Source: Eledone cirrhosa (lineage: Eukaryota). From it: a DNA stretch of 64,000 nt. A program made the translations under genes and the position numbers. Below, piece by piece: positions 2,440 through 56,035 of this stretch; positions within the stretch are counted from its first letter, which is position 1; each line of letters begins with the position of its first letter. Below the pieces are notes generated by a model. That model was not told the DNA's origin. It was given only the letters and a program-made list of their open reading frames with translations, and ran no database searches. The DNA is taken from contig OZ024743.1 in the NCBI GenBank assembly GCA_964016885.1, positions 353,710,001 through 353,774,000 of the forward strand. The letters run 5' to 3'.

Positions 2440-2558
2440 TATTAAAATAACAGATTAAAGTTTAAGCAAAGAATCGGTGCTTTCACCCTTAACGGGATCT
2501 TCAGAAGATCCCGTTAAGGGTGAAAGCACCGATTCTTTGCTTAAACTTTAATCTGTTA

Positions 2559-2917: not shown

Positions 2918-4292
<1,375 letters not shown>

Positions 4293-4647: not shown

Positions 4648-4940
4648 GCTTCCCCTGTTTTCTGAGGGAACTTGAAATAGACGAAAATATATAGTTTTTG
4701 CACCTGTGTAGATGGGCTGATTAGCCTCAATTGCATATGGAGCTGTGTAAGTTGGCTCAATTTGAAAGTAGAATTAAAATTTATCCCGACATAGCTGAAT
4801 ACATACAAGTATGTGAATTTAGTATATCTAAATATATTCGGTATGTTTAATAAATAAACATTTGGAAAGCGTAGCTATGAATATTGAAAGCCTGACGGCT
4901 ATCGCGTCCTAGCGGATTTCAGTAGAAGCAGCGGGGGATA

Positions 4941-4983
4941 ACTGTCTATGCACATTTCAAGCTCTGGCTATCATCAGGACAGT
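4941..4983 (-). ncRNA. Type I hammerhead, intact core
   Basis: actgtc CUGAUGA uagc-caga-gcuu GAA AUGUGCAU A gacagt: 6-bp stem I and self-complementary stem III. Confidence 0.85.
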
Positions 4984-5345
4984 GCTTGCCCTGTTCTCCG
5001 CTGAAACTTGATACAAGCGAAAATATATAGTTTTTTTCCTGATGATTTATTTAAGAGACAATGTGAACGAGGAGACAAAATGTATATGAACATTTTGTAT
5101 CGTTGTTCGTATTGTCTGGTTGCTGTCATCTCGTCTTGTCTCATATTTTTCGGATAGCCATTGGTTTATTTCTCACTGGTCACTGCGGCGGATCTCTGGA
5201 TTCTATGTTCGCTACAACTGAAAGACAACTCGGAATGGATGGTTGAAAATGGAAACTATGTGTTTAACTCCTTGGATTTGTGTATTTATTACTTAACATT
5301 TTCATTTGACTTATTGCATTAGTTAATGCTATACAGTTACTACTA

Positions 5346-5963: not shown

Positions 5964-7743
5964 TTAAACGATAATGTTATGGAGACAACGATACCCGAAT
6001 ATCATATAACATAAATCCAGGCGGAAAAATAGAGATAACAATAAACAGTTTAACAGATAAACCGTTATATACTTACATTACTAAATGGCTTAAGTAAATC
6101 GTCTTCCCCCCCTCTCTGTATATATAGTGTACCGGTTAAGACCGGTAAGACCTTTATCAGCTTATTACTTTCAATACTTACGAAAAGTAGTGTATCTTTT
6201 ATAAGGGTCTTCAAACGGTAAGCGCTTATATGACTAGCACTAATACATCGTAATTTAGATTACAGGCGTATATGAAAGCATATACAATATGTTTATGCAT
6301 AATAAACATTAATTTTAAGTGATACACGAACCAGGTTAACACATAATTGGGCTAAAAATGTGGGGGTTTTGGGGTATTATTAAATTCAAGAGGAGTAATT
6401 GAATCTACAAACTACAGATTAGAAATTAAATGCTAGATTTCATCAGTTGCAGCACCAGATGTTTATAGCATAATCTCCAGAACACCTGCAAATATTAATG
6501 ATAAGTTTATTGAAAATTATGAGATACTTAAACGGAGTCAAGAAATCCAATTCAACGTAAGGATGTAATGCCTTGATCGCATACGGCACTGCTGGCTCAA
6601 AAGTTTGAGTATCAAATTTGTAAACATTTGAATGCAAATGTCTTTGAATATAAAACCCACACATAACTGTAGATGAATAATCAGTCTTTGATTTTAAATG
6701 CGATGGCACTCATACATTTTTGGTTGCACTTACATTATCAAATCCCGTTTGGAAATGGATGTTTCTCTTCAACATCTGCATGTAGTTGATCGGTTCATTG
6801 AAATGTTGGACACGAAAATCTTGCTTCATAAAAGGAGTCCTTTATGTGCATGGCAGACATTGCGAATATTTTGAAGATTGACCGTATAAACACTTGGATA
6901 TGCAGCCCGTGAAACTTCAATGAGATTGTTGCTATCAACCTTTGATTTATCACCCATGAAAATCACCCATAAAAATGATGTATTTGTTTAACATCTGCAA
7001 GTACTTGATTCATTCGGTGAAATAATAGAGCATCCAAAACTGGATTAAGGTGTTTCACATATAACAAATCTGTTATTTATTCAAGAATAGGGTGTATGTT
7101 ATATACGTTACCCAATGTATCTTTTTAAGAAGGTATGATATGACTTTAAAACGACTTAACTATTATTTCTAGCAGGGAGTATGGGCACGTAGACTGTTCC
7201 TTGCTTCGTGCAGAATCAATCATGTTCGAGCAGACCTATGATCAAAGATATTCCAAATCCAGCAATACCATCTATTATCAAAACATTTCAAACACAGTGT
7301 TTCTTAAAATGTATTATCCAGTATATCTTTTTGTCTTTAAAACACCAAGATTTGATTTAAAAGATAATTTGCTGCCATTTTAACAGATCAAGTGACTACG
7401 TAAAGGCTCGTCTTTTCTTGTTTGAGGTTCTCTTCCTCTCTTGAAATTTCCCCGTTATTTCTGTTCCAATCTTTTAGGGATTTTGCTGCTTAGCGTTCTT
7501 CCTAGCTGACACATTATTTTGATGTATCTATATGTTGGTATATTCGTGACTGGTCTGTTTAATATGGTGGAAAAAAAATTACCGGTTTGCTTATTTAAGT
7601 TTTAGCAGAATAATTGTGCTAATATATAACAAATGTCAAGTTGTGTCAAGGAAACGTAACTTTTTTTTTTACTGAAGAGTTAATGTTCCTTGGTTTTGGA
7701 CACATTTAAAAGCATCATTATAGTATGATATAATGATTATATG

Positions 7744-8370: not shown

Positions 8371-8614
8371 TATACAAAAGGCAAATAGGAATAACAAAGC
8401 AAACGACACAGTACAATGAAGAAATATATAATTAGTTTTACGCTTGATATAGTAGGAAAAGTGTATTAACGTTTCGGACGCTAGTCCTTCACCAGAAAAT
8501 AGAATGAGAAATTAAGGGATAGAAAGATAGAGGAGTTTGGGCAATGGCAGAAACGAAAAAAAGATTTCTTAGAGAAAAAAAAAGAGGTCTATTCAAGCCG
8601 CCATCTCTTGGAAT
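8371..8614 (-). mobile_element. 3' end of a PLE with a minimal hammerhead (8464-8499, CUGGUGA core)
   Basis: Homologous to 46930-47065 (ggactagcgtccgaaacgttaa...tatcaagcgt); a GGLN-like EN C-terminal remnant lies upstream on the minus strand. Confidence 0.65.
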
Positions 8615-13461: not shown

Positions 13462-13933
13462 AAGAGATATATTAGATATGTCTCATATGAAATAATACAG
13501 CCAATTTTCCACGCAATACTTTTAGTTAGCACCCCAAACGCTTAATTAGGATATAATCACTTATTTCCTAATGTTTGTTGAGTGAGTTGGAATTTGGCCG
13601 GAGTATCGCTAAAAAGCTTTCTCCGATATTGTATTTATTTATATATATATATATAGTTAAAAGAATAGAGGTGTAACACACAAGTTATTATATATTGGTA
13701 AACGGAATAGAAAATGCTGACAAATTGTTCACAGTTGAAAAATGGTTTAATTAGGAATAAAAGAGTATTAGTGATTGTATGGGTTAGTATTCAGTTGTGG
13801 TTTTAAGTTTTTAAGTTTTTACCGGTTGCGCATTTCTAAATGCTTTTCAAAAATAATTTTGAGATAGAGTGTCCGTGCTGTTTGCTCTGATCTGATTAGT
13901 TTTGGGAATTCTACCTGTTTTTATGTTAAAAAA

Positions 13934-14959
13934 GTGGCTCCAGCGTTATTTTTGTGTTGCAAAAATGCTTGTGGTCAAAACAATTTTGACTTCACGATGG
14001 AATACAGCCATCAACAACTCCCCTTCCTCGACATCCTCATTAAGATCCATAACAAAAAAATAGAAACAGACATATACTACAAGCCCACAGACTCCAAGCA
14101 ATATCTCCCCTTCAACTCTTGCCACCCTAGACACGTTAAAATTAATATTCCCTACAACTTAGCCAAGAGAATCTGTACTATAGTCTCCAATAAAAACATC
14201 TGCTACTTAAGGCTACAAGAACTAAACGACACACTCATAGGCAGGGACTACCCTGCATCACTAATTGACAATGGAATCCAACGTGCCCTAAAACTCAGTA
14301 CCCAGGACCTTAGACACCCTAAAGTAAATCAACCAAAACTAAAAGCTCTTCCATACATCTCCACACACAACCCCCTCAACAATGAGACCTTTGACACCAT
14401 CCTCCAGAACATCCCTGTATTGAAAAAGGACCATAAAATGAACCAAATTCTACGAACACACGATATCATAAAGAGCAAAAGACAATCCAAGTCAATGAAA
14501 AACATCTTAACACATGCCAAAGTACTGCCAACCACAACAACGAAACCCACAGTAAAAAAATGCGATAGACCCAACTGTGGCATTTGCATCAACCTAATAG
14601 AGGGTTCGGAATTCTATTTCAAAGATGGACAACGTTTTATAGTAAAACACAATTTCACATGTGCATCGGAAAATCTAATATATGTATTAACTTGTTCAGG
14701 TTGTCGAGAACAATACATAGGCCAGACCAAAAACAGCCTCCGCCAACGCATCACTGTCCATAGATCCCAAATTAAAATACGGGAATACAGGAAAATACCA
14801 CTGAGTGAACACATTGATACCTGTGCCGCTCAAAATCATCCCAACTTCAGAATCTTTCCCCTCTACAAATTTAAAGATTATGCCACCCACACCCAGCGCA
14901 TCAGCAAGGAATCTTACTTCATTAACAAATACGGACCCCGTCTAAACACTTCTCCCTAA
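13934..14959 (+). CDS. PLE RT C-terminus/thumb plus GIY-YIG endonuclease (partial; the first about 19 codons are read from the inverted arm)
   Basis: FTME..LPFLD..TDIYYKPTD..YL..NSCHP; linker C-x4-C-x2-C (CDRPNCGIC) as in the Neptune clade; LIY.LTC.GC..QYIGQT..LRQR..H...SEH...E...LN. Confidence 0.9.
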   Translation: MAPALFLCCKNACGQNNFDFTMEYSHQQLPFLDILIKIHNKKIETDIYYKPTDSKQYLPFNSCHPRHVKINIPYNLAKRICTIVSNKNICYLRLQELNDTLIGRDYPASLIDNGIQRALKLSTQDLRHPKVNQPKLKALPYISTHNPLNNETFDTILQNIPVLKKDHKMNQILRTHDIIKSKRQSKSMKNILTHAKVLPTTTTKPTVKKCDRPNCGICINLIEGSEFYFKDGQRFIVKHNFTCASENLIYVLTCSGCREQYIGQTKNSLRQRITVHRSQIKIREYRKIPLSEHIDTCAAQNHPNFRIFPLYKFKDYATHTQRISKESYFINKYGPRLNTSP

Positions 14960-15074
14960 GACGAACCCACAACATACACACGTCAACATACATACCTACA
15001 TCAGCACACATCTCTACCCACATATAAACACAATGACACACGTAAACACACATGCTCTATGGTGCAATACAAAA

Positions 15075-15108
<34 letters not shown>

Positions 15109-15565
15109 TATGTGCATATATATGTATGTATATATGTATATATGTATATATATATATATATATGTAGTGAATATATGTATGTGTATATATATATAGTGAA
15201 TATCATTTCACACCTTTTATTGTTAAGATTTTTGATGTTCTATTAAGAGAACCGATTTTACTGAAAAAATCGAATAATGTACACCATTTTACCAGGGGGA
15301 AAAAAATACTGGTCCACCCACACACACTCACATATATACACAAACACATACACACGCGTACATAAACATACAAAGAGACTTATACACACACACACACACA
15401 CGCATTTCTCCGTATAAGACAAAAGCTGAAAAATATCTTTTGACCTTCGAATGACTCTGCTACACACACACACACACACACACACACACTTATCTTAATA
15501 GCCATTTGACACACATCGCTGCTGGCCATTGTCGCAGCATCGAACACCTTATTACTACTACTACT

Positions 15566-15675
<110 letters not shown>

Positions 15676-15988
15676 TTGTTGTGAAAGAGTCATTTCTCAA
15701 TCTTGGCGCAAAACCAATTTTTATCCACATGACCTCTACCGACCAATCAAAATTGTTTTGACCAAGAATTTTTGCTGGAGCCACTTTTTTAACATAAAAA
15801 CAGTCTTGGCGCAAAATCAACTTTTTACATTCACATGACCTCTACCGACCAATCAAAATTGTTTTGACCACAAGCATTTTTGCAACACAAAAATAACGCT
15901 GGAGCCACTTTTTTAACATAAAAACAGGTAGAATTCCCAAAACTAATCAGATCAGAGCAAACAGCACGGACACTCTATCTCAAAATTA

Positions 15989-16025
15989 TTTTTGAAAAGC
16001 ATTTAGAAATGCGCAACCGGTAAAA
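15989..16025 (+). ncRNA. Variant hammerhead-like motif (U3-A8, GCAA)
   Basis: Identical to 4095-4131; antisense copy at 13817-13853. Confidence 0.5.
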
Positions 16026-16143
16026 ACTTAAAAACTTAAAACCACAACTGAATACTAACCCATACAATCACTAATACTCTTTTATTCCTAATTAAACCAT
16101 TTTTCAACTGTGAACAATTTGTCAGCATTTTCTATTCCGTTTA

Positions 16144-16242
<99 letters not shown>

Positions 16243-19176: not shown

Positions 19177-19405
19177 ACACACACACACATACACACACCA
19201 CAGAGCATCAAAATACCAGTTGGACCTTTATTCTGAATAGAAAAGGAGCTGTCTATTTAAATCAATAGAATGTTCTAGCAAATCACTTGAATCCTGAGCT
19301 GTTAAACCCCTCTTCCACCCTCACCACCCCACCATCCTAAGGAAAATATATATAAGAAGAGGTTTTGAGAGCAAATTCACATATATTTTAAATGCCCACC
19401 TTTTT

Positions 19406-19448
19406 AATATTTGATAAGATTATCACACCAATCGAAACCGGTAAAATT
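19406..19448 (+). ncRNA. Hammerhead with U3-A8 covariant core in a diverged PLE pLTR remnant
   Basis: aatat UUGAUAA gatt-atcacacc-aatc GAA ACCGGU A aaatt; the following aaaacttaaaccc resembles the Neptune pLTR. Confidence 0.55.
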
Positions 19449-20238
19449 TGATAAAACTTAAACCCATTTAATGTAACAATTATAAAGAGATTTATCCTGT
19501 CTGATTAAAGATAAAGTAATCTTTAAATATACCCCTGTACTTTTTATCCCCACCTCTCTCTGTATATGTATATATATATACATATATGTTGTTATATATA
19601 TATATTGACCACCACAGAATCCACTAAACATCATAGGAATTTACCAACATTTCAACCATCCTCTTACGGAATCACCTATATAACTCACCCACACACACAC
19701 CCAAACATTTTTTTTCTCCCACACGCCACCTACACCCACAACACGCTTAAACCCCCCACACACACGTACTTTCCACCACATATTTACACCCTCAGCCTCC
19801 TGATTCCTCTCCCCCCACCCCTCTATCCACACACGCACAGACACTCCGATCTACAACCCCCCACAAACACCTCTTCCTGAACATGCAACCCCGTTCTTCC
19901 CCCAACCCTTATTTTCACATACACACACACACACACACACGTACACCTACATACACACACCACCTTCAGCCCTCCCCGCTCGGACACCCCGTCTCCCTCT
20001 CCCCACTCCACCCGCCACCACCCCTACACACCCCACACTCTTCCACCACCTGTTTTACCCTTTTTAATTTCAGTTTATTTTGATCATGCTTTTATATTTA
20101 ATTTTATTTCATTCCTTGTATTTTGATCATGCTTTATTTTTACTTTTATTTTTAATTTCATTCGCACCGTTTCCTTTCGCTATATGTCTCTCCACCACTC
20201 CCCTACACACCCTTTGAACTCTGTTCCCACACACTTCT

Positions 20239-20272
20239 CACCCGAGGAAGGGCTTATGCCCGAAACGTCGTT
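20239..20272 (+). ncRNA. Minimal hammerhead-like motif (CCGAGGA core) near the 3' end of a PLE-like remnant (about 19600-20362)
   Basis: CCGAGGA a gggc-ttat-gccc GAA ACGU C; stem I is only 2 bp; the element ends in (TA)n. Confidence 0.5.
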
Positions 20273-23028: not shown

Positions 23029-24532
<1,504 letters not shown>

Positions 24533-38123: not shown

Positions 38124-38380
38124 GCAGCAGCCGATTATAAAAATGCAAGTAGCTTTGTCTCAGAATATCCACAAATTAAAATAAGTATCAATTTAAATTT
38201 ACCTTTCTCTCTACCAACTATATTAATTCTTACCAAATATTTTTTTCTGAAATCACTTACAAATCATATTAATTTGTATCATATTTTTTTGAATATTTGT
38301 TATCTATTTCTGTCAATGTTACTTTTTTCATTTTCAATATTTACTAAATATAAGGTAAGTAATGTTCCCTTAAATATTTT

Positions 38381-38417
38381 GTATTGATGAGACACAATAA
38401 TGTCGAAACAGTTCTGC
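38381..38417 (+). ncRNA. Decayed minimal hammerhead
   Basis: gta UUGAUGA gaca-caataa-tgtc GAA ACAGUU C tgc. Confidence 0.4.
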
Positions 38418-39962
38418 CTATTAATATAGTAAATATAGTTGAAACTAAATGGAATATTACGAAGTGTTACGGAATATACTATTCAATTAATACGGGAGAA
38501 TAAATTTACAGCAAGGCTTCTTTCCCCTGTAAAGAAACCGCACAACTAATAAGAAACGAGCTTACAATGCCACAAAAATTTCAATCGAGTATATCTGAAG
38601 TTCTTTCCTCGGTGTATAGCGATGGTTGTAAGAGAACTTTACTTTAAGAATCTGGTAAAAAGCGAGCGAGTGAGTCTGAGAGAGAGAGAGAGGAAGGAAC
38701 AGTTGGCATGGAAATCTCTATAAAATGCAACTCTACTGCTACCAACGTCAGCAAAAGTCTGTAGTTAAATATGTATATGTACTCAAGATAATATTTCAAA
38801 TTCCTTTCGAAATCTGCATGAATAATTCCCTTTGTAGACGCCTTTTCAAACCTAGGCAGCACAGTCTGCCGTTGAAGCTGGAACATAGCAATAACAAAAC
38901 AAGGTTAACCATTTCATTAAACAAGCAAGTCTTTTAATGTTATCATTTATTTAATTACATATTCAGATGGAACTGTAAAAACGAATTTGTTGGTAAATAC
39001 TAAAATCGGCTTGTTGAGTAAACAGGTTTGTCAAATGTCTGGTGACTGTGAGAAAAATCATTTAAATATAAGGAGCCCTTGGTAATGAAAAGGTTCAGAA
39101 TCACTAGCTTATTTAGGTGTAAAACCCTACTTCTATAATTAGTGAAAGCATTTAAATACGTTTCTGGGATAAAAATTACCCATTAAATATATTCTGTAAA
39201 TTGACTTTAAAAGCAAAAGTGGATGATTTGAAAAATATTTTATTAACCCAAATACAAATTTCTACACACATATAAATTTCAACTCAGATATAAAATGACA
39301 GCCCAGAAACAATTTACAATGTACGCAGAAAATTTTAACAAAATTTTAATCCAGTCACAAATTTTAACGGAGACGAAAATTTAAATCCCAGATTCAAGTT
39401 TCGAAAATGTTTTATCAACGCATACATAATTCCTAACAAGTCAATTTAAAATCAAGTGGAGCTGAAAAAGAGCCTCAAATCAATGGATGAACAATTGAAG
39501 TAGCATCCAAAATTCAATATGAACGACTTAAAGGAAAATAAGGATAATAACTTTGAAGCAAAAGACCTAAATGCAGAATATTCCATAAGATATCAAATGT
39601 TATATATAATATTACATACTGCAATATCCTCTCATCTGCCACTCCTGTGAAAATAAAGCAATTGTTATAATCATCTATTGCCGTATATTTTCTTCCTTAA
39701 TGCTATTATAAATATTTAAGCTTTATCACCTTTAATAAAATATTGTATTCATTCACAACAGATGACTCTCCCAGACTGCCGACCAGTACAAACCAGAATT
39801 TCTCTACTGCAATTATCAGTTTGATAATTTTTGCTCTCCATTTGCAGCTATTATTTAAATATAAGTTGTTTTCAATTTTTGATCTAAGATAAATTGGCAC
39901 TCCCCATCTTAATAATATTTCAGCAGATTTTCTTATTCGATGCGCTCCTTATTTTTATAAAT

Positions 39963-43278: not shown

Positions 43279-44986
43279 CACCGTGTAACAAAAACATTTT
43301 TTTTCTCTGTTCCTGGCTTGTAATCACTTTTTTGTGTTGCTTAGGTCCCAAATAAAAAAAAAAAATGCTATTAAACAGTTAAAAGTTTGGGTCTGTAAAA
43401 ATTCTAAGCTATTCACTAGAATTATTTGTATGCTGGATTTTACGTTGTATGTAAGTTTAATTTGCTTATGTTAAATGATTTTTATATATATGTTTCAGGT
43501 TAAATTAAAATTATAAAATAAAGAGTAATACCTAAAGAAAATTATAAAAGTGCAATAAAATATAAAATTGTTAAAAAGTCGATTAAAGAGATTTATTGAT
43601 ACTGGATTTTCGCATTTTAAGCATTCGTCTCCAGGATGAAGCAGTGGAACTTGGTCAAGGAGGAAGTGCAGGTGACAAGTCAGAGAAGTCGACACGAACC
43701 TTTCTCAGGCTTTTACACTCTTAGGGATGGCCTCTGCTTCTGCCATGACGTGCCTGAACTGTTTGATGTTATTGAGGTGCCGTTTGTGCCCAAGGAGTGG
43801 CAGCTATTTATAGACAGCTCCACCACAAGTTTGAAGGCTGTCCTCCTCCACAATGGAAACAAGTTCCCGACACTGCCCCTAGCTCATTCAGTTTTCCCGA
43901 AGGAAGATTACTACAGTGTGAAAGTCGTCTTAGAAGCTCTGTAATACAACCAGTACAATTGGGAAATCATTGGAGACTTCAAGATGGTGGCTTTCCTGCT
44001 TGGACTCCAAGGAGGCTTTATCAAATTCTAATGCTACCTCTGCAGAACCACCTCTGACCACTACAAAAGAAAGAACTGGGAGCAGCGAACAGAATTTGTA
44101 GTTGGGACCCGGAACGTCATGTTGGAGCCACTGGTTGATCCCAGGATTGTGCTCATGCCGCCACTGCACATTAAGTTGGGGTTGATGAAGCAGTTTGTGA
44201 AGGCTCTCAACCAAGAATCATCCGCTTTTAAGTACCTTCTTGAGTTCTTCCTCAAGTTATCTGAGGCCAAAATCAAAGGTGGAATTTTTGTTGGACCTCA
44301 GATAAAGAAGGTGTTTGAGTCTACCGAGTTCTCCAATAAGCTCTATAGGATTGAGAGAACAGCATGGAACTGTTTCAAGGCAGTTGTTAAGGGCTTCCTG
44401 GGCAACTACAGAGATGAAAACTACCAGAAACTGGTGCAGGATCTGGTAAAGGCTTTTGGCGCCATGGGATGCAGGATGTCACTTAAACTCCATATGTTGG
44501 ACGCTCACCTGGAAAAATTCAAGGACAATATGGGCGCCTACTCAGAAGAACAAGGCGAACGATTCCACCAAGATGTGAAAGAGATAGAGCGGAGGTACCA
44601 AGGCCACTACAATGAAAAAATGGTGGGGGACTATATCTGGGGGCTAGTGCGGGAATGCGACCTGGACTACAACCGCAAATCCAGGAAATCCAGTAATTTC
44701 TGACGTGTATAAGTTGCTTTATAAGTGTTATTTGTTTTTACTTGTTTGCTTTTGATAAGCTTGTGTAATAAAATAAATATATACTCTGTTGATTTAATTA
44801 TATGAACTGATAAATTTAAAAAAAATGTATTTTTTCTTGAAAAATATGAACATTTCGAAATATCAAACTCCTGACCACAAACCCAAACTTCTGATTAAAT
44901 AATAGTGTTTTTTTAATAATAATGGGATATAACAAACCATGAAATGACACTTAGAACCGGGGAACAAAAAAATATGTTACACGGTG
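43279..44986 (+). mobile_element. Chapaev3-like (CMC superfamily) DNA transposon
   Basis: TIRs caccgtgtaaca / tgttacacggtg extending imperfectly; 3-bp TTA TSD. Confidence 0.85.
43636..44703 (+). pseudogene. Chapaev3-type transposase, disrupted
   Basis: W.LFIDSS..SLKAVLLHNGN; PPLHIKLGLMKQFVKAL; MSLKLH.L..H; SEEQGERFHQD..E.RYQG; in-frame stops at about 43942 and 44029 plus a frameshift. Confidence 0.85.
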
Positions 44987-45852: not shown

Positions 45853-47069
45853 GGATTTTCTTTTTCGGGTGAATTTTACCAGCAGGTCTCTGGGGTAGCG
45901 ATGGGAACCAGAATGGGTCTAAACTATGCTAACTTGTTTGTTGGCTACGTCGAAGCCCAGATATTCTCCCAGTACGCTGGACCGACTCCTGAGCTATACG
46001 GTCGTTATATCGACGACTGTATCGGCGTCACCTCTCTATCACGAGAACAGCTCGACTGTTTTCTTTCTTTTGTCCTATCTTTCCATCCTGCTCTCAATTT
46101 CACCGCCTCCGTCTCCGATTCTTCTGTCGCTTTTCTAGATATCTCTCTATCTATTAATCACTCTCACCACACTCTCTACTTCCATCTACATTAAACCAAC
46201 AGACTCCCAATCTTATCTCGACTTCACCTCTTCCCATCCAACCCACACCAAACACTCCATAGCCTATTCCCAATTCCTCCGTCTTCGTCGACTCTGTAGC
46301 CAGGACAACGATTTCGAAACCTATTCCCTTCGCATGGCTTCTTGCTTCATCCAGCGTGGATATCCCCCCACCTTGATCCAAGCTGCTCTCACCCGCGCAC
46401 GTGAAACAGACCACACCACACCTATCTCACCTCACCCCGCCCTCCCAACACCAGTGTTCCTTTCCCTCTCACCTACCATCCCATCACCCTACCACTCCGG
46501 CGACATATCCTCCGTTCCTTCCGTATCCTCTCTTCTGACCCCGCCACTTCTAGCTGTTTTCCAAACCCACCCATTACTGCTTTTAAGCGCGCCCGAAACC
46601 TCCGCGACCTCCTGGTTCGGAGTTCTTTTCCGTTCTCTCCCAGGACTCCACCCGGCTCTCATCCTTGTTCCCGTTCCCGCTGCAACACTTGTCCCTTTAT
46701 TTCCACCCTCACCACTCTTACAGGCCCTAACGGGTCTTTCCGTATCCGACATTCCTTCACCTGCACATCCACCCACGTTGTCTATGCCCTCCGGTGTTCC
46801 CTTTTACGGGTCTTTATATGTCGGACAAACGGGACGCCGTATGGCGGACCGTTTTGCCGAACATTTGAGGGACATACGACTCGGTTTGGATACTCCTGAC
46901 GACCCCGCCCGTCCCCTCAATTTATTTTATTTCGCATTATTTCTTCTGATGAAGGACTAGCGTCCGAAACGTTAAGACCTTCTTCCTGCTGTATCAAGCG
47001 TTAACCTAATATATACCTTCCATATACTGTACCGATTGTGTTGTTATTTCTGTTTACCTTTTACATGCA
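45853..47069 (+). mobile_element. Second Neptune-type PLE, 5'-truncated and frameshifted, with 3' hammerhead, in (TA)n
   Basis: FYQQVSGVAMG, RYIDD, FLDI, KPTDSQSYL, C-x4-C-x2-C linker, LYVGQTGRRMADRFAEH. Confidence 0.9.
46942..46977 (+). ncRNA. Minimal type I hammerhead of PLE
   Basis: tctt CUGAUGA a ggac-tagc-gtcc GAA ACGU U aaga (palindromic stem III). Confidence 0.85.
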
Positions 47070-47089
47070 TATATATATATATATTATAT

Positions 47090-47800: not shown

Positions 47801-48328
47801 TACGCGCGTGCGTGCGTGCGTGTGTGTGTGTGTTTATGTGTGTGTGTGTGTGTGTGTGTGTTTGTGGGTGTGTATGTATTTGTGTGTGCGTATGTATGTG
47901 TATGTCCGTCGGGGCATACGTATGTACTGGCCTAAATCTTCACTATTTACATTTACTATTTTAATTACCTCTGTCATTTTCGTTTTCAATTTTATTTACA
48001 TAATTCTTAAACTCCGGGGCTGGAAATCATTCTGTTATTTTAAATAGAATATTAGTCTAACGACTCCATTTATACCATAAACTTGGTCTTGTCTTTGCAT
48101 GAAATTGTTCTTCTCGACCCACATAACGACGTATTATCCTCTCCTTTTTTCCGTTCATTACCAGGGAACGTCTTCACGAACCAAAATATCGTCTTCCTGT
48201 TTTCCTTCGGTTGCAACGTTTCTCGAAATATTTACTTCTGCGTTCACAGATTAACTTTTTTAGTTTCAGAAGATCCCGTTAATGTTGAAAGCAGCGACTC
48301 TTTGCTTAAACTTTAATCTGTTCTTATA

Positions 48329-49551: not shown

Positions 49552-50290
49552 AATATTGTCATACTTTAGGAGGGCCATGTCGCCAATAAGAAACACACAC
49601 ACCAGTTGCTTTCACTCCAATTTATTATAAATTAAATTTATAAATTTAAGAATTTATAAATTTCCGGTTGATTGGTTCCACAACCTGACGGTTGTTCATA
49701 TATTGTCAAAGTTCTTTCGTCACACATTCTGTGACCTCTTCAGTGGCTGGGAATTCTTCTCTTTGTTTTGTGCCTCTCCTTTGTTCTGTCCTACGCCATC
49801 ATTATTTTTAACTTTATCATTATTTTCCCTCTATGTTTCTTTCTCTCTACCTTTATTTCTCCTTTAACCCCTTTTCTCTCCTCTTCCTATCCTCCTTTCT
49901 CTATGTCTTTTTCTCTATGTCTTTTTCTCTGTCTTTTTCTCTATGTCTTTTTCTCTCTCTATATTTCTCTCTGTTTTCCTTTCTCCTTTTTCTTTTTCTT
50001 TTTCTTTTTCCATTTTTCCTTCTTTCGTTTATCTATCTCTATTTCTCTCTCTATCTTTATTAGTAATATTATTAATGATGCTGCAATTTGACTTGAATTT
50101 ATAAATCCAACGGATATCCTAATTGTCTCTGATGATCTGATTAAGCTAACCTCGTATTTAAAATTGAGTGGCATTGCTTCTAGTGTTCAGCAATTTTTAG
50201 ACAACTTAATCAGTGAAATAATTGTTAGACTGTAAATGAATCGCTTTTTTGTACTGTTGACCATGTTATTCTTCACTTTTTCAATTTTAT
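49552..50290 (-). mobile_element. PLE 3' remnant with hammerhead at 49705-49747
   Basis: gcca CUGAAGA g gtcac-agaatgt-gtgac GAA AGAACU U tgac; upstream degenerate ITWS...LLNTRS EN-like remnant. Confidence 0.6.
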
Positions 50291-50589: not shown

Positions 50590-51817
50590 GGAAAAAATGA
50601 AACGAAATTTCATTTCCCACTCTTAGTACGGCTGTTACTTAAATATAGGTATGTACACGTACATACATATATGTATACAGACGTACAGTAGTATGTACAT
50701 ATATATACATACATGCACACATATATATATGTACGTATGGATTCACCGAACATTTATTATAATGCTCGGTGTGCTTGTAAACATACATCCCGTATTAAGC
50801 CGCAGTGTCCAGCAACCATCATTGCTCGTTTGTTCAAGCACACCGAGCATTATAATAAATGTTCGGTGAATCCATACGCACATATATATATATATATGTG
50901 TGCATGTATGTATATATATGTATATACTACTGTACGTCTGTATACATATATGTATGTACGTGTACATACTTATATTTAAGTAATAGCCGTACTAAGAATG
51001 GGAAAGAATGAAATTTCGTTTCATTTTTTCCGTTCATCGGTTTCGGTGCACCCGGCCGATTAACCCACTCGATATGCAAATTGGGATACTCAGCCGTTAA
51101 TATGCATAAGGTAAGTATATACGTTCAACAATCTGGCAGGAAGGTATACGTTGCTGACGATAGCTAATAAGCTTGAAACTAGTACAGCGTTCCTTTGTCA
51201 GTGTTGAACAAACGAGCAACGATGGTTGCTGGACACTACGGCTTAATACGGGATGTTTGTTTACAAGCACACCGAGCATTATAATAAATGTTCGGTGAAT
51301 CCATACGTACATATATATATATATGTGCATGTATGTATATATATGTACATACTACTGTACGTCTGTATACATATATGTATGTACGTGTACATACTTATAT
51401 TTAAGTAACAGCCGTACTAAGAGTGGGAAATTAAATTTCATTTCATTTTTTGCGTTTATCGTTTTCGGTGCACCCGGCCGATTAACCCACTCGATATGCA
51501 AATTGGGCTACTCAGCCGTTATTATGCATAAGGTAAGTATATACGTTCAACAATCTGGCAGGAAGGTATACATTGCTGACGATAGCTAATAAGCTTGAAA
51601 CTAGTACAGCGTTCCTTTGTCAGTGTTGAACAAACGAGCAACGATGGTTGCTGGACACTACGGCTTAATACGGGATGTTTGTTTACAAGCACACCGAGCA
51701 TTATAATAAATGTTCGGTGAATCCATACGTACATATATATATATATGTGTGCATGTATGTATATATATGTACATACTACTGTACGTCTGTATACATATAT
51801 GTATGTACGTGTACATA

Positions 51818-53006: not shown

Positions 53007-53397
53007 AACCAAAGATTAGTATGGTTCGTTGATTACTCAATGAATACAATTTTACAATAGATAGAAGCACTCAACAGCAAGTTTTCCTGGAGTTTTTATT
53101 ATTATTCAAAATATTAACAAATGAAAAATATTCTCAGGTACTGTGTTGTTTTTTCAGTACGTCCTCATCAGACAAAATAAATGATTTGATATATGACATG
53201 CCGCTACGGTCTTGATTATTCAATTCTGCCAATACTGGAATTGAATAATCAAGACCGTAGCGGTATGTCATATATCAAATCATATATTTTGTCTGATGAG
53301 GACGTACTGAAAAAAAAAACAACACAGTACTTTTGAAATATATATAATAAAGTATATATTTTGATCATGAGAATATTTTTCATTTGTTAATATTTTG

Positions 53398-54187: not shown

Positions 54188-55211
54188 TTATAAATAACGA
54201 CACTGAGATTTATACCTCATGCGTCGCCTTTTGGTTATAACATTTTTTTATATCATATTTATATATTTCATATATATATATTTTTCATCATGGATTCATT
54301 GCGCTCATGTTGCTTATTTCTTAATGAATTTGAGTATTTTCATTCTTATTGCGGTTTATTGGATATGGAATATTCTTCGTATTCTTCGTCTGGTCGGTTG
54401 GCTCTTTTTTCTTTAATAGCTTAGTAGGTTATTTAATCTTAATTATGTTTTACATTCGAGTATGTATATTACGATTATTTGAACCCCCCCCTCACTCCCC
54501 TCCGATGCGCGACATCATGTCATCTTGGGGGAATTACTTGAGGGTTTAAGGTCAAAGGTAAACGAGAGAAGCTGGAGCAAGTCCTGTTAAGTAATCGGGT
54601 TGTAGTCGCTGCAGGCAATAATGAATATTTAATGTCTATTCTTATACAGAATCCGCGTAATTTGACGACAGCAGCTTGAAAGAGTCTACCTCTCCATACT
54701 CATTTAGAGCGGGTTAGAGGTTGGGATATAGGATGATGTCTGAGGTAGGGATTTTGGAAGATCTCTTAGCTCTAATATAGACATTTAAGTTATAATTGGC
54801 TCGGTTTTTACGAATGTAATTTTTACGAGTTTGGAATCCGACAGTCTTGTCCACTAGATGGTTTGTTTATTGTTGACTCTATTTTCCGAGTGCATTGTTT
54901 ACATATAGGGCATTTGATGATTGCTTGTGTTTGTTCTATATATGTATATAGTATATATATGTGTAGTGTAAATGTATGTATATTTAAGTTGGTCATCGAA
55001 GGTGACTATGCTGACTGGAGCAATAACGGCCTTGCTTAGTTATATATTTATATATATATATATATATACAGGGGCCGGCCGTCAAAGAAACAACACCATG
55101 CGTTCGGTCGGCCGCCTGTATCACGAAAAGAAAATCGTTTTTGGGGTAATTATTGGATTTTTCCGAATTTAGAGGTTTATTACGAACTTTCAATGTTTAT
55201 TTTAGGTCTTG

Positions 55212-55269
55212 CCGTCTGAAGAGCTCAGGCTATCTTAACCAATAGTTCTCAGCGAAATATGTATAACGG
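55212..55269 (+). ncRNA. Type I hammerhead, intact core
   Basis: ccgt CUGAAGA gct...agc GAA AUAUGUAU A acgg. Confidence 0.75.
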
Positions 55270-55321
55270 AGTTTTAAATAAACCTGAATCAATTGAATAT
55301 GGCCTCCGATCTTTTATTAAT

Positions 55322-56035
55322 ATATACTTTCAAAAGTTCAATCGACTGACAGGAAGGTATACGGTGCTGATGACAGCTAATAAGCTAGAAACTAGTTCAT
55401 CGTTCCTTTGTCAATGTTGAACAAAAGGGCAACGATGGTTGCCGAACACTGTACGGCTTAATTCGGGCTGTTTGTTTATAAACAAACCGAACATTATAAT
55501 AAATGTTCGGTAAACCCATACGTACATATATATATGTGTGCATGTATGTATATACATACTACTGTACGTCTGTATACATATATGTATGTACGTATTCATA
55601 CTTATATTTAAGTAACAGCCGTACTAAGAGTGAGAAATGAAATTTCGTTTCATTTTTTCCATTTATCGTTTTCGGTGCGCCCGGCCGACTAACTCTCTCG
55701 ATATGCAAATTAGGCTGCTCAGCCGTTAATATGCATAAGGAAAGCATGTACTTTCAAACGTTCAATCGACTGACAGGAAGGTATACGGTGCTGATGATAG
55801 CTAATAAGCTAGAAACTAGTTCATCATTCCTTTGTCAGTGTTGAACAAAAGGGCAACGATGGTTGCCGAACACTGTACGGTTTAATTCAGGGTATTTGTT
55901 TACAAACAAACCGAACATTATAATAAATGTTCGGTAATCCCATACGTACATATATATATATATATGTGCATGTATGTATGTATATACATACTACTCTACG
56001 TCTGTATACATATATGTATGTACGTATACATACTT
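55322..56035 (+). mobile_element. 422-nt HHR repeat family, locus C: about 1.7 head-to-tail units (424-nt spacing)
   Basis: HHRs 55361-55403 and 55786-55825 (ggtg CUGAUGA uagc-uaauaa-gcua GAA ACUAGU U catc); cleavage sites 55397 and 55821. Confidence 0.9.

Follow-up and report, generated by a model that had tools for sequence, protein, structure and literature searches.

Two insertions of a Neptune-type PLE

The window, by which we mean the whole 64-kb stretch of Eledone cirrhosa contig OZ024743.1 that was analysed (64,000 nt), contains two insertions of one PLE, delimited by self-comparison at about 2920-4292 and 13656-16153, each with (TA)n on both sides. Each insertion consists of a 5'-truncated direct copy and an inverted copy of its own 3' end, with a tail of 33 bp at one end only. 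Their parts are as follows.

3274-4292, plus strand: direct arm of insertion 1, with the motif at 4098-4128 and the 33-bp tail at 4260-4292, which matches 13656-13688
2920-3277, minus strand: insertion 1, inverted arm, carrying the motif at 3044-3074
13656-13989, minus strand: insertion 2, inverted arm, carrying the tail and the motif at 13820-13850
13990-14959, plus strand: 5'-truncated PLE ORF of insertion 2, with RT thumb region, C-x4-C-x2-C linker and GIY-YIG endonuclease with CCHH; no stops

A reading of the arms as tandem pLTRs was not borne out, as there are two insertions with inverted arms and no tandem pLTR here. The four arms represent two insertions and therefore provide at most two independent observations. 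The arrangement of inverted arm, tail and (TA)n fits the description given of endonuclease-bearing PLEs (PMC8557442). In the ORF protein (P0001), the GIY-YIG domain PF01541 was found above cut-off at residues 270-359, with the C, C, H and H columns conserved. The CX2-5CxxC linker between RT and endonuclease, which is described as common to Neptune and Nematis (PMC8557442), is present as C-x4-C-x2-C, and the inverted 5'-truncated arm, one-end tail and (TA)n targets of Neptune are all present. Assignment as a Neptune-type PLE is well supported, with both copies being devoid of the RT core that would separate Neptune from Nematis. The two insertions share 99.6% identity over 482 bp, and the family has recently amplified. 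The earlier note had called the element a young Neptune PLE, and a young PLE of Neptune type is supported.

Argonauta and Octopus supply the closest named proteins to the ORF. In a quick tree of 64 rows (SH-aLRT support only, no PLE clade references), the ORF grouped with two Argonauta proteins in a set of seven rows (support 99). No relative of the ORF protein was found in viral contigs. An imperfect tandem repeat lies upstream of the motif in the 3' UTR (15698-15927), its two units measuring about 105-127 bp and being 80% alike. Elsewhere in the window, a 223-aa ORF is present at 44032-44703, which we take to resemble a DNA transposon protein.

A hammerhead-like motif near the 3' end

The motif lies in the 3' terminal, pLTR-forming region of the PLE, downstream of the GIY-YIG ORF and 125 nt before (TA)n. 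It comprises 31 nt (UUGAAAA, a hairpin, GCA, ACCGGU and A) and occurs at 15992-16022 and 4098-4128 on the plus strand and at 13820-13850 and 3044-3074 on the minus strand. All four copies are identical, as had been claimed, and the arm coordinates given at that time (3041, 4095, 13817 and 15989) correspond to the motif plus three stem I bases. Also confirmed was the absence of a CUGANGA hammerhead from the arms, since none was found inside either insertion. The parts of the motif in insertion 2, and two features to which we refer below, are listed here.

15989-15991, plus strand: stem I 5' strand UUU, pairing with 16023-16025; three contiguous U-A pairs, no G-C pair
15992-15998, plus strand: core 1, U3 U4 G5 A6 A7 A8 A9, with U3-A8 in place of C3-G8 and A9 without an extra base
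15999-16012, plus strand: stem II of 5 bp, closed by G10.1-C11.1, with a 4-nt loop; MFE hairpin, closing-pair probability 0.97
16013-16015, plus strand: core 2, G12 C13 A14, in which C16014 is the A13C change
16016-16021, plus strand: palindrome ACCGGU, A15.1 to U16.1, which forms stem III only between two copies
16022, plus strand: A17; predicted cleavage between 16022 and 16023, placed by hammerhead numbering
16023-16025, plus strand: stem I 3' strand AAA, partner of UUU
15980-15995, plus strand: competing 6-bp hairpin, covering the stem I 5' strand and U3-A6; MFE
19406-19448, plus strand: diverged U3-A8 hammerhead with GAA and ACCGGU, at the end of another, ORF-less element

Stem II had been described as a 6-bp hairpin but has only 5 bp and a loop of 4 nt; adding a sixth pair would shrink that loop to 2 nt. 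Comparison with the hammerhead core showed that U4, G5, A6 and A9 and a Watson-Crick pair at 3-8 are present (UUGAAAA, U3-A8), as is a palindrome at 15.1-16.1 followed by H17 (ACCGGU, then A). The palindrome pairs in the co-fold MFE. In the second core strand, where G12 A13 A14 A15.1 is expected, position 13 is C in all four arms while G12, A14 and A15.1 are intact.

The motif pattern matched 5 times in the window and 0 times in each of 100 dinucleotide shuffles, and a structural descriptor gave 5 matches as against 0 in 60 block shuffles. Both pattern and descriptor were composed after the motif had been seen, and independent tests of homology therefore weigh more. Among viral contigs, used as a control, none of the 40 matches to the GCA pattern had both stems paired over at least 3 bp.

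An alternative register with GAAA at 16006-16009 gives, by eye, A at 16.1 and no stem I, and was rejected. ACCGGT at 7581-7586 was likewise dropped as a further motif, as neither the descriptor nor the covariance model described below matches there. UGCGCA at 16010-16015 is a second self-complementary hexamer, created by A13C and situated directly 5' of ACCGGU; it could provide an alternative RNA dimer, or could be due to chance.

Homology to PLE hammerheads

In metagenome contigs, 118 stretches encode relatives, of which the best 80 were retained. Their UTRs contain hammerheads of the same build, in which A9 is without an extra base and GAA is followed by a palindrome. ACCGGT is the commonest palindrome (14 of 48 distinct descriptor matches), and on shuffled sequence the descriptor gave about 6.7 matches per replicate, 0.65 of them with GAA. 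We built a covariance model (R1) from 30 hand-picked metagenome motifs, all with GAA and none taken from the window. Both stem I and stem II covary in the alignment, as do the palindrome and the 3-8 pair, which is C-G in 27 rows and U-A in 3. Pairing was seen in 91% of alignment cells as against 29-43% with slid partners, in rows that had been chosen for pairing.

Each of the four arms received an R1 score of 21.3 bits (E 0.026 on a rough calibration), which is inside the range of 16.7-24.4 bits obtained for the seven copies of a second, canonical PLE-end family in the window. The top match in the window was 19401-19456 (29.5 bits, E 3e-4). This confirmed the diverged relative proposed at 19406-19448, with the motif itself at 19411-19443, GAUU/AAUC as stem II, and GAA. 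The predicted cleavage site is 125 nt from (TA)n both at 16022 and at 19443, and the distance is 127-129 nt in three canonical copies that were checked. No Rfam hammerhead model matched 15900-16140 at E up to 10, and among the matches listed for the whole window most were to microsatellite sequence.

The R1 score, the covariation and the equal distance to (TA)n therefore identify the motif as a hammerhead by descent, in agreement with the earlier note, which had treated it as a hammerhead homologue, and with its position and palindrome. As judged by sequence comparison, it descends from the 3'-UTR hammerhead of a subgroup of Neptune-type PLEs, of type I and with a 6-nt palindrome.

Like the PLE hammerheads of Cervera and De la Pena (2014), it is of type I, lies near the PLE 3' end, has a palindromic stem III and a predicted dimer, and includes U3-A8; like their Marsupenaeus japonicus example, it has A9 without an extra base, a 6-nt palindrome and A17 (PMC4209133). 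Unlike them, it carries C13 where their Fig. S3 has GAAA, and its stem I consists of only three A-U pairs (PMC4209133). Very short palindromic stems III and PLE association are also features of the dimer-cleaving short-stem-III hammerheads cited in PMC6765202, compared here by description only. The motif is thus built like short-stem-III PLE hammerheads and descended from them, and departs from them at one defining core feature, A13, so it is not to be filed as a functional member before an assay. Short-stem-III hammerheads associated with PLEs and requiring a dimer are reportedly the subject of Lunse, Weinberg and Breaker (RNA Biol 14:1499).

The U3-A8 pair

The swap of C3-G8 to U3-A8 had been put forward as part of a non-canonical core that CUGANGA searches would miss. 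The swap itself is present, but it was published in 2011 and 2014. Perreault et al. (2011) describe U3-A8 as a natural covariation that is active in vitro (PMC3088659), and Cervera and De la Pena (2014) reported it in PLE hammerheads, with a dedicated descriptor that gave about 1,300 matches in Schistosoma mansoni (PMC4209133). Fig. S3 of the same paper shows S. mansoni families with UUGAUAAA and UUGAAAAA cores (PMC4209133). Among the 80 related loci, U3-A8 was found in four (L018, L021, L023 and L042), which fall in three separate parts of the tree. Pairwise mutagenesis in one construct reported in eLife showed rescue by the G3-C8 swap only (PMC9901934), which argues against presuming U3-A8 neutral everywhere. 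Since it is already known and already covered by searches, the U3-A8 pair changes nothing.

Stem I and predicted folding

Stem I is made of three A-U pairs with no G-C pair, and its duplex energy of +2.4 kcal/mol makes it weaker than that of all 30 relatives (median 5 bp and -5.4 kcal/mol, 1 of 30 without G-C), which had been chosen for a stem I of at least 2 bp. Its predicted pairing probability was 0, and that of two canonical motifs 0-0.14. The 19411 motif has a mismatch at the second pair of stem I; with stem I weak there too, the weakness predates A13C.

U4 and G5 were paired in the competing hairpin at 15980-15995 with a probability of 0.99. The folding gap to the double-hammerhead form was about 15 kcal/mol, compared with 15-17.5 kcal/mol for canonical motifs. 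We rejected the competing hairpin as a sign of inactivity because canonical motifs misfold equally in prediction, and it therefore does not discriminate between them.

A13C within and outside the family

To look at the family as a whole, public contigs of run X1 were aligned to 15680-16150 at 80% likeness or more, which leaves out copies less alike than this, and variants were recorded at a share of at least 3%. A total of 2,410 contigs aligned, 994 of them at least 99% alike, in a run that may be the window's own source sample, whose contigs lose rare variants and whose summed depth is not copy number. Substitutions were seen at 16 sites, with none between 15973 and 16060, so that C is the sole base at 16014 with a share of 3% or more. 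At 16002, 15% of X1 depth lacks one nucleotide, a deletion that would keep the five stem II pairs and shorten the loop. Zero variation within the 37-nt motif was not significant (P about 0.15-0.27). C13 appears to be fixed family-wide, which strengthens the earlier proposal, drawn from the four arms, that A13C predates both insertions. Runs X4 and X6, which carry other organism codes, each contributed a single contig over the motif region, differing at 0 and 2 positions and with depths of 8 and 13, respectively; we did not take these as cross-species conservation, since near identity at low depth could reflect shared or stray DNA.

Outside the family, the change is rare. R1 matches with E up to 0.14 had GAA in 39 of 41 cases (33 of 35 distinct cores), with CAA and GCA once each, in a count of which 30 are the GAA training rows, and hence biased, and from which three weaker matches are left out. 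This lends no support so far to GCAA as a functional alternative core, as the earlier note had it, and corresponds to one half of what that note had named as speaking against itself, namely a lack of conservation in related families. A descriptor blind to position 13 gave 39 GAA and 2 GCA among 48 distinct matches. The GCA match at L011:159-207 lies in a 5' repeat whose sister repeat has GAA; A13C is one of the 4 differences between the repeats over 342 bp, and therefore arises as an ordinary point change. GCA on the minus strand of L063 has no R1 match and is probably due to chance. Among the relatives seen, C13 would seem to be kept in no other family, the closest relatives (54-61% protein identity) lying outside the DNA set. 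A13C is the sole unusual part of the motif.

Changes at A13 are expected to be strongly harmful, at a cost of orders of magnitude in hammerhead activity. Perreault et al. (2011) place A13 in the core consensus and state that most core mutations drastically cut activity; the variants named in the text consulted are A6C, U4C, the insertions A6a, U13a and 2a/2b, and U15.1-A16.1, and do not include A13C (PMC3088659). The core column extracted from Fig. S3 of Cervera and De la Pena (2014) lists GAAA only, plus one AGAAA, and no GCAA (PMC4209133). Our literature search, which covered few subscription papers, found no rate for A13C, nor did it find a family-wide A13C, which figures, several supplements and the Lunse paper, all outside its coverage, may list.

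A probable attenuated or dead ribozyme in a mobile family

We consider it most likely, with a probability of about 0.6, that the motif is an attenuated or dead ribozyme in a family that is still mobile. In the lineage, C3-G8 would first have given way to the tolerated U3-A8, and stem I would have come to consist of A/U pairs only, as also seen at 19411. A master copy of the young family would then have gained A13C, and amplification would have spread it to nearly all copies; fixation was seen in one run, and the order of events is our reconstruction. The ribozyme would now be very slow or dead while the family keeps moving. Reverse transcription would start 3' of the motif and read through it on uncleaved RNA, so that copying would need no cleavage, as suggested by the anatomy of the insertions and by work on Anolis Poseidon.

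Judging from the tail, the putative RT starts would lie some 131 and 164 nt 3' of the cleavage site. All four arms extend well over 60 nt 5' of that site; every arm passes it upstream, and the insertion templates would therefore have been intact there. At the reverse-transcription step, a dead 3' hammerhead would cost nothing. In the Anolis Poseidon work of Frangieh et al. (2024), catalytic mutants of the PLE hammerhead left in vitro insertion unaffected, unprocessed RNA was the main substrate for insertion, the hammerhead cleaved only with protein, and RT began at two internal positions of the RNA, by which the tail is defined (PMC11167929). The present element resembles that element, PAc, in having a hammerhead upstream of two RT starts that leave a one-end tail (33 bp here), and differs from it in that PAc has a canonical C3-G8, demonstrated protein-assisted cleavage and a different PLE clade (PMC11167929). 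Naiads are also reported to proliferate without canonical hammerheads (Craig 2021). Motifs with short palindromes need two copies for stem III and cleave slowly, according to literature including a review (PMC6765202).

Some observations speak against decay. The core is otherwise intact, as are the palindrome and stem II with its G10.1-C11.1 pair, and the sole common indel spares the stem. In X1, the motif is without substitutions as against 16 variable sites around it, which is opposite in direction to decay and not significant. By analogy with other PLE hammerheads, assistance by protein could rescue a weak core.

The best of the alternatives, which we regard as rather doubtful, is a working, slow hammerhead that tolerates C13, with dimers formed through ACCGGU and a PLE protein chaperoning folding past the competing hairpin. 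It is equally doubtful that transcripts from tandem copies owe their 5' end to cleavage after A16022, as this reading would have it. In its favour, the family has been amplifying recently with C13 fixed and the remainder of the core preserved, and the U3-A8 swap is an active one. Natural core variants have low but real activity (PMC3088659), cleavage by the Anolis PLE hammerhead depends on protein (PMC11167929), and unusual stems II are tolerated in relatives, some with U-U at 10.1/11.1 and others with nearly no stem. Against this, no other family seen keeps C13, stem I is the weakest of the set with no compensating change visible, and two sense copies are never in one transcript at these loci because the arms are inverted. 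A stronger version, in which the hammerhead is active with C13, enabled by U3-A8 or protein and switched by the 15980-15995 hairpin, is unlikely; if it were true, a functional A13 substitution would be fixed in a mobile family, and a class of hammerheads would have been overlooked by GAAA-based searches.

It is no more probable than that version that catalysis was lost and the region kept for a non-catalytic purpose, such as RNA dimerisation through the palindrome, binding of the PLE protein, or a part in the 5' leader or pLTR promoter. Consistent with such a role, the co-fold MFE is dominated by palindrome pairing, stem II has a probability of 0.97, and no X1 substitution between 15973 and 16060 reaches a share of 3%, though this absence of variation is not significant. 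A short motif 3' of the cleavage site is common to the 19411 element (31 of 2000 shuffles reached an equal score), but the 40-nt window for it was picked after seeing it, longer flanks were no better than shuffles (1036/2000 and 863/2000), and relatives differ freely in their palindromes. A chance likeness arising in A/T-rich UTR sequence, to which the modest score (E 0.026, rough), the missing Rfam hammerhead match and the post hoc descriptors might point, is very improbable and already largely refuted by a position, architecture and palindrome as in related elements, by the other, diverged motif, whose stem II differs and is still paired, and by the empty shuffles and the viral control, where no match had both stems.

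With a core base changed in nearly every copy, this young, high-copy family amounts to a natural experiment on what PLE hammerheads do. Absence of cleavage would be in vivo support for cleavage being dispensable for PLE mobility, matching what was seen in vitro with Poseidon, whereas cleavage would require a wider hammerhead core consensus at position 13.

Other hammerheads in the window and in relatives

At least five PLE-end families with hammerheads are present in the 64-kb window. The second PLE-end family has seven copies, at 23289-23342 and 23883-23936 on the minus strand and at 24144-24197, 51144-51197, 51566-51619, 55357-55410 and 55781-55834. It has a canonical CUGAYGA core, an ACUAGU palindrome and several inverted arrangements, with GGA at 12-14 in one copy, and is a natural positive control. 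A frameshifted Neptune-type PLE at 45860-47070 (about 34% and 24% identity in two segments) has a canonical minimal hammerhead at 46946, and a copy related to it at 8440-8510 on the minus strand has a hammerhead with A6G at 8495 (minus). A minimal hammerhead with U4C at 20242-20269, 92 nt before (TA)n, forms the end of a further PLE-like element that adjoins the 19411 element. Weaker hammerhead-like relics, with R1 scores of 13.6-20.1 bits, were found at 38374-38427 (U3 with G8), 4934-4987 (minus), 48257-48320, 2451-2514 (minus), 49696-49753 (minus), 55206-55278 and 53283-53346.

In the relatives, a U-U mismatch replaces G10.1-C11.1, with a paired stem behind it, at L001:1593, L003:2086, L009:3207, L015:3132 and L036:3050, which belong to more than one tree group. 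Stem II is nearly absent at L014:1868, L002:1412 and L056:145, with 3, 5 and 5 nt, respectively, between A9 and G12. These three have good stems I (4-6 bp) and palindromes, and the L014 motif may be among the smallest natural hammerhead-like motifs.
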